From an uncultured Candidatus Actinomarina sp. (GTDB lineage: Bacteria; Actinomycetota; Acidimicrobiia; Actinomarinales; Actinomarinaceae), in assembly GCA_902576605.1 (NCBI GenBank), contig CACGVI010000004.1, forward strand, positions 1-55,570: a stretch of 55,570 bases of DNA, in the 5' to 3' direction. The notes under the pieces are model-generated. The model was given only the letters and a program-made list of their open reading frames with translations. It was not told where the DNA came from and did no database searches. Positions 12,884 through 27,068 of the stretch are shown here, in pieces; positions within the stretch are counted from its first letter, which is position 1, and each line of letters opens with the position of its first letter. The translations under genes were made by a program, and so were the position numbers.

Positions 12884-12887
12884 TTTG

Positions 12888-12961
12888 TGGGAGATACAAG
12901 ATTTGAACTTGTGACCCCTTGCGTGTCGAGCAAGTGCTCTGCCGGACTGAGCTAATCTCCC
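12888..12961 (-). tRNA. tRNA-Val(GAC)
   Basis: GGGAGAT/ATCTCCC acceptor stem, anticodon arm CTTGC-TCGACAC-GCAAG, T-loop GTTCAAATC. Confidence 0.97.
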
Positions 12962-14533: not shown

Positions 14534-14607
14534 TGGAGGCGACGACCGGAATCGAACCGGTGTACAAGGTTTTGCAGACCTCTGCGTAGCCACTCCGCCA
14601 CGTCGCC
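14534..14607 (-). tRNA. tRNA-Cys(GCA), CCA encoded
   Basis: GGCGACG/CGTCGCC stem, anticodon loop CTGCAAA, GTTCGATTC, 3' TCCA. Confidence 0.97.
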
Positions 14608-14613
14608 ATGTAG

Positions 14614-14686
14614 AGCGGAAGACGGGATTTGAACCCGCGGCCTCCACCTTGGCAAGGTGGCGCTCTGCCAGCTGAGCTACTTCCGC
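14614..14686 (-). tRNA. tRNA-Gly(GCC)
   Basis: GCGGAAG/CTTCCGC stem, CCACC-TTGCCAA-GGTGG anticodon arm, GTTCAAATC. Confidence 0.97.
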
Positions 14687-22990: not shown

Positions 22991-23473
22991 ATGAAACGTT
23001 TTTTGCTAATTTTTATTATATTATTTATTTCTTGTTCGTATGGAGCTAGTGAAGAACAAGAAGGTGAAATACTAGAGGCTATGCCAGAATCTACAGATGC
23101 TATTACTGCTTCTTCTTTTAAGTATATCGATACATCTGAAACTATTGTTGCAGAAAATTTTACAGATAAAAAAACAATCATAATTTTCTGGGCTGATTAC
23201 TGAGGCGTATGTAGGCGGGAGTTACCTGTCGTAGAAAATGAATTAGCTAACATTTCTGATGAGTATGATGTTATTGCACTAGCGCACAGTCAGTACGAAC
23301 CAACTATGGCATGGGTGAATGAGAATCTTAAAGGCCAGCTCAGAATTGGTTTCTCTACTCCTGAGTTAAGAGACTATTTTAAAATTGTTGGTCAACCAAT
23401 TTCTATAGTGCTTGACACCAATGGTGAAATAATTTCACGTACTTATGGTGACATTGATTTAACAAATTTTTAA
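22991..23473 (+). CDS. TlpA/ResA-like thioredoxin lipoprotein with in-frame UGA (candidate selenoprotein, UxxC, 160 aa)
   Basis: Frame continues through TGA 23201-23203: IIFWADY-U-GVCRRELP...FKIVGQPISIVLDTNGEII to TAA 23473; lipobox FISC. Confidence 0.8.
23214..23230 (+). promoter_or_regulatory. Candidate bacterial SECIS element
   Basis: GGCGGG-AGTTA-CCTGTC hairpin starting at +11 after UGA, G in loop position 2, GC-rich codons in an AT-rich gene. Confidence 0.6.
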
Positions 23474-23536: not shown

Positions 23537-24673
23537 ATGACGAAAAAATCATTTATACTTTTACTAGTTTTATCTTTGGCTTTTGCTGCATGTGGCGGTA
23601 CTGCTGAAGAAGAGACTGTAGAAGAACCTGCAGTTGTTGAAGAGGCCGAAACTCTAGACGCACCAGCTACTACTGTTGCTGAAACACTAGATAAAATAAC
23701 TTTCGGTTTTATTCCAAGTGCAGAACAAGCTGATCTTCAAGACAATATCAAACCATTAATGAAAGTTTTAACTGATGGTCTTGGAATTGAAGTTGAAGGA
23801 TTTGTAACTAGTGACTTTTCAGGATTATTAGTTGCGATGGGATCTGGTCAAGCAGACATTGGTGCATTCAACACATTAGGTTATGTTAATGCATTAAATG
23901 TATTCCCAACAAGAATTGAGGCAATTGCAAAAGTTGTAAGATACGGCTCTGGTTCATACCATGCTAATTTCTGGACAACTGATCCAAGTGTCTGTGATTC
24001 ACCACCTGTAATTGGAGCATTTGAAAATATCGATGGTGTTCCAACACTAATTCTAGGTTCTGAAACAGAATCTCCAGACGTGAAAGCATTACAAGTTGGT
24101 TGGACCTTTGGTGATGACGGAAAGATTCCAGAAGTTAGAAATATTGATGGTGTTGACGTAACAGTCAGCCCAGGATATGCATGTGAAGCTGATTTAAATG
24201 TACTAAGAGGTGAAAAAGTATTATTTGTTGAAGAAGGTTCAACATCTGGATACCTATATCCTTCTTTACAGCTAAAAAATATGGGAATTGATTATCAAAA
24301 TGATATTACCCAAGTTTTTGCTGGTTCACATGATGGAGTTATTTCAGGTCTGTATAACGGTGATGCTAAGTTTGGTGTTACTTATGATGATGCTAGAAGA
24401 ACTTTAAGAAAAACCAATCCTGATGTTGGTGAAAAAGTTATAGCTATCGGTATTTCAGCTGAAATTCCAAATGACGTTGTTGCTGTAAGAAGCGATCTTC
24501 CAGAAGATATAAAATCTAAGATATATCAAATTTTATCTGATTACATGGCTACCGAAGAAGGTGCTGCTGTAATGGATGAAATTTATGGATGGACAGATGT
24601 TGTTCCTGCAGACAATTCTGAATTTGATGTAGTAAAACAAGCTGCTGAAGAATTCGGTCTTTACGACGATTAA
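23537..24673 (+). CDS. phnD: Phosphate/phosphite/phosphonate ABC transporter substrate-binding lipoprotein
   Basis: Lipobox FAAC, ITFGFIPSAE, STSGYLYP, GSHDGV, IPNDVVAVR; GGAGG SD. Confidence 0.9.
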   Translation: MTKKSFILLLVLSLAFAACGGTAEEETVEEPAVVEEAETLDAPATTVAETLDKITFGFIPSAEQADLQDNIKPLMKVLTDGLGIEVEGFVTSDFSGLLVAMGSGQADIGAFNTLGYVNALNVFPTRIEAIAKVVRYGSGSYHANFWTTDPSVCDSPPVIGAFENIDGVPTLILGSETESPDVKALQVGWTFGDDGKIPEVRNIDGVDVTVSPGYACEADLNVLRGEKVLFVEEGSTSGYLYPSLQLKNMGIDYQNDITQVFAGSHDGVISGLYNGDAKFGVTYDDARRTLRKTNPDVGEKVIAIGISAEIPNDVVAVRSDLPEDIKSKIYQILSDYMATEEGAAVMDEIYGWTDVVPADNSEFDVVKQAAEEFGLYDD

Positions 24674-24725: not shown

Positions 24726-25493
24726 ATGATTAAATTTGAAAATGTAAGTGTCACCTACCCAGGTGGAGTTGAAGCCCTAAAAGATTTAGATCTCGAAATC
24801 AATGAGGGTGATTTTATAATTATTGTTGGACTATCTGGAGCTGGTAAATCCACTTTGTTAAGAACCATTAATAATCTTGTTAAGCCTACAAATGGAACTG
24901 TTTTCCTCGAAGGTAAGGATGTAACTAATGCAAAGAAAAGAGACTTAAAGAACATACGTTCACAAATTGGAATGATTTTTCAAACATTTAATCTAGTCAA
25001 CAGATCTACAGTTTTAAAAAATGTATTAACAGGTAGATTAAGTACAGTATCTACTTTTAGATCTATATTTGGATTATGGCCAAAGGATCAAAAACAACTT
25101 GCTTTTGAAGCGCTCGATCAAGTAGAGATATTAGAAAAGGCTTATGTACGGGCATCTAACCTTTCTGGAGGCCAACAACAGAGGGTTGGTATTGCAAGAG
25201 CATTATCACAAAAACCTAAAGTAATGCTTGCGGATGAGCCTGTGGCATCACTTGACCCTATTACATCAAGGGTTGTTATGAATTATTTAAAGAAGATAAA
25301 TACTGAACTAGGTATAACTACAATCGTAAATTTACATTTTCTTGATTTAGCAAAAGAGTTTGGAGATAGACTAATTGGCCTTAGAGATGGAAAATTAGTT
25401 TTTGATGGAAATGTTGATGGTGTATCTGATGAAGATTTTGAAAATATCTATGGACGTTCTATTAAATCTTCTGATTTAATCGGTAATGATTAA
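24726..25493 (+). CDS. phnC: Phosphonate ABC transporter ATP-binding protein
   Basis: GLSGAGKST, LSGGQQQRV, LADEPVASLDP, VNLH. Confidence 0.95.
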   Translation: MIKFENVSVTYPGGVEALKDLDLEINEGDFIIIVGLSGAGKSTLLRTINNLVKPTNGTVFLEGKDVTNAKKRDLKNIRSQIGMIFQTFNLVNRSTVLKNVLTGRLSTVSTFRSIFGLWPKDQKQLAFEALDQVEILEKAYVRASNLSGGQQQRVGIARALSQKPKVMLADEPVASLDPITSRVVMNYLKKINTELGITTIVNLHFLDLAKEFGDRLIGLRDGKLVFDGNVDGVSDEDFENIYGRSIKSSDLIGND

Positions 25494-26268
25494 TTTACCT
25501 AAAAAACCACCTCCTTCTTATTTAGTTACAATTGGAATTCCTTTTTCAATACTTTTTACAGTATTTTCATTTCAGCGAGTAGGTTTTAACCTTCAAGATT
25601 TTAGAGAAAATTTAGCTAATAGAGCTATAGTTACAGACCCTTTATTCAACCCTAAATGGAGTTGGGCTTGGGAAAATACTGCTGATGCTATGGTAGAAAC
25701 TGTTCAAATTGCAATACTTGCCAGTATCGTTGGGTGCGCCTTAGCTTTACCTTTATCTTTTTATGCATCAAGAGCAACAAACTTAAACAAGTATTCTTAT
25801 TTTTTATACAAATCATTTTTAAATTTAGTTAGAACAATTCCTGATTTGTTTTGGGCAATGCTTTTCACTGTTGCAGTTGGTATTGGACCATTTGCAGGAG
25901 TTTTAGCACTCATTATGTTTTCTCTTGCAATAATGGGTAAGTTACTATCAGAGACTATTGACAGTATAGATCCAGGACCAATGGAGGCAGCAAAAGCAAC
26001 TGGATCTACTCATAATCAAACAGTATTTACTTCAGCATTGCCTCAAGTGCTCCCAAACTTCACCGCATATTTTCTCTATATCTTTGAATTATGCATAAGG
26101 GCAAGCGTAATTCTTGGTTTAGTTGGTGCTGGAGGTGTTGGTAGGATTATCGAGACTCAGAGAATATTTTTGAGGTTTGATAGAATTTCACCAATCATTG
26201 TCATCATTCTTGTTGTAGTTATATTAATTGAACAGTTCAGTGTCTGGATTAGAAGAAGAATATTATGA
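25486..26268 (+). CDS. phnE: Phosphonate ABC transporter permease
   Basis: RTIPDLFWA, IDPGPMEAAKATG, IRASVILGLVGAGG. Confidence 0.93.
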   Translation: MINLPKKPPPSYLVTIGIPFSILFTVFSFQRVGFNLQDFRENLANRAIVTDPLFNPKWSWAWENTADAMVETVQIAILASIVGCALALPLSFYASRATNLNKYSYFLYKSFLNLVRTIPDLFWAMLFTVAVGIGPFAGVLALIMFSLAIMGKLLSETIDSIDPGPMEAAKATGSTHNQTVFTSALPQVLPNFTAYFLYIFELCIRASVILGLVGAGGVGRIIETQRIFLRFDRISPIIVIILVVVILIEQFSVWIRRRIL

Positions 26269-27068
26269 ACATTCCAAAGCAACCAATTAGTCAGAGAATT
26301 TTAAAATATACTTTAACTACAGGCATCGTTTTTGCTTCATTATGGTCAGCAGCTGGACTCGAAATAACTATTGAAAGAATTTTAGATGCACCTAGGCAAA
26401 TTGGGATATTAGTTGGAGCAATGTTTCCATTAGACACTAGTCAAGAGGCTATAGATAGAATCATTCCAAAAGTCTTTGAATCATTATTTATTGCATGGGC
26501 TGGCACAGTAATTGGAGCAATTTTTAGCTTTCCTGTTTCATTCCTAGCAGCGCAAAATGTTGCAGTTGGAGCAGTAAGTAGAATAACTAAACAAATATTA
26601 AATGCTATTCGTGCTTTTCCAGAATTAATATTGGCTTTTGTATTTTTGCCTATCACTGGTTTAGGGGCGTTTACAGGAACGTTAGCTTTAGGAATTCACT
26701 CTATTGGAACTCTAGGAAAATTATCATCAGAAGTAATAGAAGGAATTGATGAAGGTCCTCTTGAAGCTATAAAATCTTCCGGTGGTTCAAAAATAAATGA
26801 ACTAATTTTTGGTGTAATTCCCCAAGTTATGCCCACAATAACTTCATACTGGCTTTACAGATTTGAAATAAACTTAAGAGCTTCAGCAGTTCTCGGTGTT
26901 ATTGGTGCTGGAGGTGTTGGGCAAGAGTTAATAAATCAATTAAGATTTAGAGATTTCCCTAGGGCAGGAACAGTATTAATTTGCACAATTGTCTTAGTTC
27001 TAATTGCAGATGCTATATCAGCTTCAATTAGGAATAGAATTATTCAAGGAAAAGTAGTTAAGAGTTAA
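26265..27068 (+). CDS. phnE: Phosphonate ABC transporter permease
   Basis: RAFPELILA, IDEGPLEA, YRFEINLRASAVLGVIGAGGVG. Confidence 0.93.
   Translation: MNIPKQPISQRILKYTLTTGIVFASLWSAAGLEITIERILDAPRQIGILVGAMFPLDTSQEAIDRIIPKVFESLFIAWAGTVIGAIFSFPVSFLAAQNVAVGAVSRITKQILNAIRAFPELILAFVFLPITGLGAFTGTLALGIHSIGTLGKLSSEVIEGIDEGPLEAIKSSGGSKINELIFGVIPQVMPTITSYWLYRFEINLRASAVLGVIGAGGVGQELINQLRFRDFPRAGTVLICTIVLVLIADAISASIRNRIIQGKVVKS

Follow-up and report, generated by a model that had tools for sequence, protein, structure and literature searches.

A predicted lipid-anchored selenoprotein with a TlpA-like thioredoxin fold in Candidatus Actinomarina

We describe a gene of an uncultured Candidatus Actinomarina sp. 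whose in-frame UGA codon is very probably read as selenocysteine (Sec, U). The gene lies in the window, by which we mean the whole 55,570-nucleotide (nt) stretch of DNA analysed here (contig CACGVI010000004.1 of GenBank assembly GCA_902576605.1). As far as sequence comparison can tell, it is a genuine bacterial selenoprotein gene, with the predicted Sec at residue 71 (U71) of an exported thioredoxin-like enzyme. This reading follows from the conservation of the UGA, the alternation of Sec and cysteine (Cys) among orthologues, the covariation of a hairpin that is absent from the Cys forms, the Sec machinery of the genus, the selection acting downstream of the UGA, and the fold. The original prediction, which was made from the letters of the window without database searches, had proposed a candidate selenoprotein in a streamlined actinobacterium. 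The host is indeed Ca. Actinomarina, and all of the checks suggested at the time that were run here favour Sec.

The UGA codon and its downstream hairpin

The frame opens with an ATG at 22991 and closes with a TAA at 23471-23473; the TGA at codon 71 is the single internal stop (Table 1). Gene calling under translation table 11 reports a 70-residue open reading frame (ORF) only, which ends at 23203. The context of the TGA, IIIFWADY-U-GVCRRELP, is that of a TlpA/ResA-type CxxC motif with TGA in place of the first Cys. Both of these points had been made in the original prediction and both stand: solved TlpA-like proteins have that Cys in the aligned position of a profile search, and one frame without a further stop runs past the TGA and through the GQP loop to the TAA.

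Table 1. Positions of the predicted selenoprotein gene, its elements and the adjoining transporter genes in the window
Feature	Position	Strand	Basis
Complete predicted selenoprotein gene, 160 codons + TAA; lipoprotein, TlpA/ResA-like thioredoxin-fold oxidoreductase	22991..23473	+	Frame; Pfam; profile and fold matches; 30 full-length orthologues
Signal peptide ending in lipobox MKRFLLIFIILFIS-C15; mature protein predicted to start at Cys15, with a lipid attached there	22991..23035	+	Sequence pattern
In-frame UGA; predicted U71, attacking residue of UxxC	23201..23203	+	Sole codon of the column in 30 species and L071-L076; aligns with first Cys of CxxC
Redox motif U-G-V-C (U71, C74)	23201..23212	+	Frame; C74 invariant among orthologues
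Predicted selenocysteine insertion sequence (SECIS) hairpin: 5' arm GGCGGG 23214-23219, loop AGUUA 23220-23224, 3' arm CCUGUC 23225-23230	23214..23230	+	Covariation; homologues; rare codons
cis-Proline loop G134-Q135-P136	23390..23398	+	Invariant in orthologues; aligns with GQP/GIP of solved TlpA-like proteins
PhnD-type (Phosphonate-bd) lipoprotein of ABC transporter	23537..24673	+	Pfam
ABC transporter ATPase	24726-25493		
ABC transporter permeases	25486-26268 and 26265-27068		

The codon is remarkably stable within the genus. An orthologue with exactly one in-frame TGA is found in 32 of 36 congeneric species genomes. Thirty of these orthologues were extracted for alignment (47-87% identity, many from single-cell genomes); their frames are complete, at 146-171 codons, and the TGA column is identical in every one of them, within the motif FWADY-U-[GS]-x-C-R. 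The TGA also stands at the aligned site in six high-GC homologues from other families of the Acidimicrobiia (L071-L076), where the motif reads FWAEW-U-x-x-C-R-R-E-L-P-V-V. Furthermore, the sequence beyond the codon is under purifying selection. The median ratio of nonsynonymous to synonymous substitution rates (dN/dS) falls from 0.34 in codons 40-70 to 0.24 in codons 72-160; since the part 3' of the TGA is at least as constrained as the part before it, we conclude that it is translated. A UGA confined to this assembly, with decay downstream, had been named as the outcome that would speak against Sec, and the 30 species with their selected downstream regions present the opposite picture.

More distant orthologues carry Cys at the site. 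The orthologue L070, from an Actinomycetota metagenome-assembled genome (MAG) and 40% identical, has TGC; P0007/L077 has TGT, and P0004, which was retrieved as a protein sequence only, has Cys. On the sequences compared, TGA against TGC or TGT is a classical case of Sec/Cys alternation, the pattern that the original prediction had proposed to look for. In a class-wide sample the TGA-bearing homologues occur only in genomes that are selA-positive (G037, G042 and G047), with none in the 8 selA-negative genomes.

The hairpin GGCGGG-AGTTA-CCTGTC, which had been noted at +11, is found at that place. Its stem of 6 base pairs (bp) includes G-U pairs, its loop has 5 nt, and it begins 11 nt 3' of the TGA; an additional A-U pair (23213 with 23231 in the alignment) lengthens it in many species. 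A stem-loop at the same place is possible in all 24 distinct Actinomarina sequences. Covariation was counted over 7 pairs in these 24 sequences, with 500 shuffles and a sliding of the 3' partner by 1-3 columns as controls. The paired cells amount to 92.9%, compared with 43-61% when the partner is slid, and the observed covariation score was reached by none of the 500 shuffles. For example, 17 sequences have C-G at the pair 25-37 and the other 7 have G-C, and two pairs neighbouring it vary between A-U and G-U. This swap from C-G to G-C alters two amino acids jointly (CGG or CAG to GAG, i.e. R or Q to E, and GTC to CTC, i.e. V to L). Because the swap comes at the cost of coupled amino-acid changes, it shows that the RNA pairing itself is selected, besides the protein.

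The composition of the hairpin is also unusual for this genome. It has 65% GC, against 34% for the gene, and uses CGG, the genome's rarest arginine codon (0.8% of Arg), as well as AGG (16% of Arg), GTC (8.9% of Val) and GAG (23% of Glu), so the earlier remark on GC-rich codons was well founded. No comparable hairpin lies 8-14 nt 3' of the stop in any of the 175 ordinary TGA-terminated ORFs of at least 100 residues in this genome. In the high-GC homologues this element recurs, as GACGGG-AGUUG-CCCGUC. It is absent from L070 and L077, the two Cys forms with DNA read (minimum free energy of about -2.7 kcal/mol); a look for covariation in the hairpin had been proposed, and the compensatory changes and this absence are its outcome.

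In a mechanism of the usual bacterial type, the hairpin would recruit SelB carrying Sec-tRNA(UCA), and Sec would be inserted at the UGA of codon 71 in place of termination. In the finished protein U71 would act as the attacking nucleophile and C74 as the resolving residue, and the two could form a selenenylsulfide.

Selenocysteine machinery and further candidate genes

The assembly that hosts the window (its contig C4) is fragmentary: it comprises 758 kb in 25 contigs, is 63% complete and has 33% GC. It was stated earlier that selA, selB, selC and selD are all missing from the window, and this holds. A tRNA-Sec gene with the anticodon UCA (75 bits with the Rfam model; ARAGORN SeC(tca)) and a Sec-type selD (374 bits) lie elsewhere in the same genome, on contig C1. 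A single in-frame TGA also interrupts selD itself, within the motif GSGUACK. Together with selA and selB in congeners, tRNA-Sec and selD bear on the question of Sec machinery that the original prediction had raised. In the genus as a whole, tRNA-Sec is present in 36 of 41 genomes, and selA passes its score cut-off in 18 of 22 congeneric genomes, each time with a full-length selB-like gene (about 560 residues) directly adjoining it. A survey of 84 complete Actinomarina genomes likewise reports universal selC, selA and selD and a divergent selB, maps selA to the margin of a hypervariable region, and predicts about five selenoproteins per genome, with no thioredoxin named (10.64898/2026.04.03.716425).

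In selD (L010:1501-2418; G000:C1:61358-62275, plus strand) a hairpin CUCUCC-CAA-GGAGAG starts 10 nt 3' of the TGA. The window itself has three tRNA genes, all on the minus strand, for Val(GAC) at 12887-12961, Cys(GCA) at 14534-14607 and Gly(GCC) at 14613-14686; those for Cys and Gly give weak, sub-threshold matches to the tRNA-Sec model. Two further genomes of high contiguity, G009 (contig C1, a single contig of 1.01 Mb) and G010 (contig C5, 912 kb), have tRNA-Sec and the TGA-form gene, and no match to selA or selB. This gap is likely due to the edge of the hypervariable region being missing from them.

A crude scan of the whole genome for read-through frames returned 30 candidates, mostly adjacent genes in one frame or noise. 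A candidate on contig C10, for example, was rejected as a deoC-like gene followed by an aldehyde dehydrogenase gene, two adjacent genes in one frame. Among the 30, only four look real: selD, the gene under study, a thioredoxin-like gene on contig C2 and a CMD/AhpD-like gene on contig C8. The C2 gene (G000:C2:58162-58737, minus strand) is a second UxxC thioredoxin-like candidate, membrane-anchored, with the motif FYSDYULGC and a match to Pfam Thioredoxin. Its hairpin is AAAUUCAU-AGUUG-AUGAAUUU, and the apical loop AGUUG equals that of the gene under study. The C8 gene (G000:C8:22619-23191, plus strand) is a candidate with the CxxU motif NECEYUIRAH and a Pfam CMD match of E = 5e-9, and is followed by the hairpin UCUCC-GGUC-GGAGA, whose loop GGUC we take to match the apical loop of E. 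coli fdhF.

Fold, likely role and alternative readings

The read-through protein matches the Pfam families Redoxin, Thioredoxin_8 and AhpC-TSA with E-values of about 1e-6; the Redoxin score of 27.4 bits lies just above the cut-off of 26.6. Searching the PDB with a profile of the orthologues returned only TlpA-like thioredoxin-fold matches, with the redox motif and GQP aligned. An AlphaFold2 model has a mean predicted local distance difference test score of 78, where the 10-residue blocks between residues 41 and 150 score about 81-94 and the signal peptide and linker score low. The best PDB superpositions are with ResA, Etrx1/Etrx2 (4hqs, 4hqz and 2yp6), DsbE/CcmG, M. tuberculosis DsbF (3ios), StoA and TlpA, at template modelling scores of 0.6-0.73. 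With its CxxC-type motif, cis-Pro loop and fold match, the protein belongs to the TlpA-like thioredoxin-fold family (cd02966). Narrower assignments were rejected. Orthology with ResA, TlpA or DsbE is contradicted by the NCBIfam scores (NF002854, 33.7 against a cut-off of 170; NF047696, 28.3 against 230; TIGR00385, 25.2 against 123), as is membership of NF041054, 'ResA-like WAxxUGC motif-containing protein' (21.1 bits against 300); the motif here is WADYUGVC.

A signal peptide with a lipobox opens all 30 Actinomarina orthologues, lipoboxes are also found in the 6 high-GC homologues, and C15 and S16 are invariant among the orthologues. Judging from this pattern, the mature protein should have about 145 residues and be lipid-anchored on the outer face of the cytoplasmic membrane. 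The membrane-anchored, exported UxxC oxidoreductase that was first proposed is thus what the TlpA/ResA fold and the invariant lipobox Cys would predict.

What might such a protein do? By analogy, we see about an even chance that it is an Etrx-type reductase at the cell surface, fed by CcdA and serving in repair of or defence against oxidation. In S. pneumoniae, as Saleh and colleagues are said to have found in 2013, the surface lipoproteins Etrx1 and Etrx2 are fed by CcdA and reduce the surface protein MsrAB2. Electrons would likewise pass here from cytoplasmic thioredoxin via CcdA to the selenoprotein, and from there to oxidised surface targets, as in the pneumococcal CcdA-Etrx pathway. Most congeners (28 of 36) encode CcdA, and ResB (PF05140) was found in 0 of 37 genus genomes, this one included, with positive controls (CcsA was not searched for). 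With CcdA in the genus and ResB missing from it, we favour a reductase at the cell surface over a factor for maturing cytochrome c. The absence of ResB, and the lack of resB or resC neighbours beside the ccdA gene of genome G010 (L086:7530-8237), led us to reject a ResA-like part in that maturation.

A 191-residue ORF without annotation (L086:8240-8815) follows the G010 ccdA after a gap of 2 nt and could be a CcdA partner. In the genome of the window, a Cys-containing TlpA/Redoxin-like paralogue (208 residues) adjoins a DsbB-family gene (172 residues) and a rhodopsin gene (219 residues) at L085:5168-7014 (G000:C5:49167-51013, minus strand). This paralogue and the DsbB-family protein are likely to be an oxidative-folding pair, distinct from the selenoprotein.

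Next to the predicted selenoprotein gene, after a gap of 63 nt, lies the PhnD-type gene of an ABC transporter (Table 1). The two stay together in about 27 of 30 Actinomarina species, in a genus for which extensive shuffling of gene order between species has been described (10.64898/2026.04.03.716425). In the genome G055 the homologue is flanked instead by trpD and cbiMQ.

Several results weigh against the picture given so far. The assembly, at 63% completeness, yielded neither selA nor selB, and the selB genes of the genus score 183-216 bits, under the TIGR00475 cut-off of 242. No Rfam family matches the hairpin in a scan of 23100-23350, where the only hit is a chance CRISPR-DR match (E = 3.2), and its covariation derives in large part from a few clade-level events among related sequences. 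With regard to the role, no CcdA turned up in the incomplete assembly to which the window belongs, and an attempt to draw the function from gene context was rejected, as there is no consistent neighbourhood hint across Actinomarina and G055. The position of selA at the edge of a hypervariable region plausibly explains its loss from fragmentary assemblies such as this one. The survey of complete genomes likewise came upon no matching Rfam model (10.64898/2026.04.03.716425).

Could the TGA be a true stop, whether in a pseudogene, a split gene or through a sequencing or assembly error, with a 70-residue lipopeptide as the only product? The table 11 call and the missing selA and selB can be read in this way, and some termination at the UGA is likely in vivo given that Sec decoding is generally inefficient. 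However, the same TGA recurs across 30 species, and it turns up again in 6 distant homologues and on more than 100 metagenome contigs, from sources that include independent single-cell genomes and MAGs. There are no additional stops or frameshifts, the downstream dN/dS is low, and the resolving Cys, the cis-Pro and the remaining fold all lie 3' of the TGA, which leaves a 70-residue product without any fold. We regard a true stop as extremely improbable. It is just as hard to believe that the TGA is decoded as a standard amino acid, be it tryptophan (Trp, W) as in translation table 4 or a residue inserted by near-cognate read-through. Trp would inactivate a CxxC enzyme, and orthologues have Cys at the site; moreover the high-GC homologues, which certainly use table 11, share both TGA and hairpin. 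The genome does resemble table-4 organisms in being AT-rich, and public gene calls do place W at the site in 121 homologues, but long ORFs are dense across the window under table 11, tRNA-Trp (anticodon CCA) and tRNA-Sec (UCA) are encoded by separate genes, and in-frame TGA codons occur in few genes only, at redox motifs (GSGUACK of selD, UxxC and CxxU).

The remaining alternative accepts the selenoprotein and changes its task: it may be an oxidant, like M. tuberculosis DsbE/DsbF, or a Prx-like surface peroxidase, rather than a CcdA-fed reductase. This is possible, though we think it unlikely. The Pfam matches to AhpC-TSA and Redoxin, the presence of DsbF among the fold matches, a DsbB-family gene in the genome and the missing CcdA of this assembly would all fit, and marine UxxC 'Prx-like' selenoproteins have been catalogued without a known function (PMC2398784). 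Yet the DsbB-family gene adjoins a different, Cys-containing paralogue, which is the more obvious oxidase partner, and reductases (ResA, Etrx and TlpA) head the list of fold matches. Furthermore, with CcdA present and ResB absent in the genus, CcdA needs another extracytoplasmic client. The CcdA-fed selenoprotein reductase would be such a client.

We can offer a wider and more tentative suggestion. The hairpin consensus xACGGG-AGUUG-CCCGUx is kept nearly letter for letter from genomes of about 33% GC to high-GC genomes, and would constrain the protein motif to C-R-R/E-E-L-P. These genes may be an ancient selenolipoprotein family across the Acidimicrobiia, which in Actinomarina, a genus that keeps CcdA and would have lost ResB, could serve as the main CcdA client in a selenium-dependent surface-repair or antioxidant pathway, and which could help to explain why a 1.1-Mb genome retains the Sec machinery.

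Database representation and relation to known systems

In public databases this protein is difficult to recognize. All 121 close full-length homologues (P0003, P0005, P0009 and P0153-P0271), which are metagenome-derived, have W at the Sec position (FWADYWG...). This W is an artefact of table-4 gene calling on short AT-rich contigs. Further entries are fragments of 50-80 residues that end at the TGA, and no entry is named. As a result, public resources either miss or misrepresent one of the few predicted selenoproteins of a bacterium that ranks among the smallest free-living and most abundant in the ocean. The correct reading identifies one of about five products for whose sake a 1.1-Mb genome keeps selA, selB, selC and selD. 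It also supplies a concrete bacterial SECIS for the lineage, one that is missed by Rfam models, and points to selenium-dependent redox chemistry at the surface of a photoheterotroph of the sunlit ocean.

General knowledge of selenoproteins is unchanged by this gene, and the novelty implied by the original prediction was too high. Marine metagenomes have yielded TlpA-like and redoxin selenoproteins of the UxxC type since 2005, and UxxC thioredoxin-fold proteins are the dominant selenoprotein class there (PMC1088965, PMC2398784, PMC13188914). The use of Sec by Actinomarina has also been preprinted (10.64898/2026.04.03.716425). What is new here is the identity of a TlpA-fold selenolipoprotein, its spread across the Acidimicrobiia with a nearly invariant SECIS, the correlation of the hairpin with Sec and Cys forms, and the mistranslation in databases.

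The catalogued marine families include the 'Thiol-disulfide isomerase-like protein' (now cd02966, TlpA-like), 'Prx-like 3' (pfam08534) and the 'Redoxin family protein' (PMC1088965, PMC2398784, PMC13188914). Like these, the protein described here combines a TlpA/redoxin-type thioredoxin fold with a predicted Sec in place of the first Cys of CxxC, comes from a marine surface bacterium, has its SECIS just after the UGA and has many Cys homologues. Unlike the present analysis, those papers give no Actinomarina assignment, no lipobox and no Acidimicrobiia-wide hairpin. The motif strings of the gene do not occur in the supplements of the Global Ocean Sampling paper or of the Actinomarina preprint, so no sequence-level tie to a catalogued family was found. 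The NF041054 proteins are similar in being ResA-like selenoproteins whose motif starts W-A-x-x-U-G, but that model spans 354 positions, and our gene has WAxxUGxC instead.

Among characterized SECIS elements, that of E. coli fdhF offers a useful reference. Both hairpins start 11 nt after the UGA and have G-U in the apical loop. The stem described here is much shorter (6-7 bp) and has no evident bulged U, and its loop is AGUU(A/G) rather than GGUC, with no Rfam match. The rules that Zhang and Gladyshev are said to have set out in 2005 place the apical loop of a bacterial SECIS 16-37 nt from the UGA, with a G among the first loop bases. Our hairpin fits these rules, as drawn from the fdhF work and bSECISearch, with an apical loop that starts 16 nt after the UGA and contains G-U.

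At the protein level, the closest structural comparisons are B. subtilis ResA, Bradyrhizobium TlpA and E. coli CcmG/DsbE. All share with the predicted selenoprotein a motif of the W-x-x-W/Y-C-x-x-C type, a cis-Pro loop and extracytoplasmic membrane anchoring, and an electron supplier of the CcdA/DsbD type exists in the genus. They differ in that their attacking residue is Cys, whereas here it would be Sec, and the System II protein ResB is absent from Actinomarina. The pneumococcal Etrx1 and Etrx2 also use Cys, and no ccdA or msrAB adjoins the gene described here; the functional likeness is one we infer. Nevertheless they are lipoprotein-anchored thioredoxins of the TlpA fold, they come from an organism without c-type cytochrome maturation, and they are among the top fold matches to the predicted Actinomarina selenoprotein.

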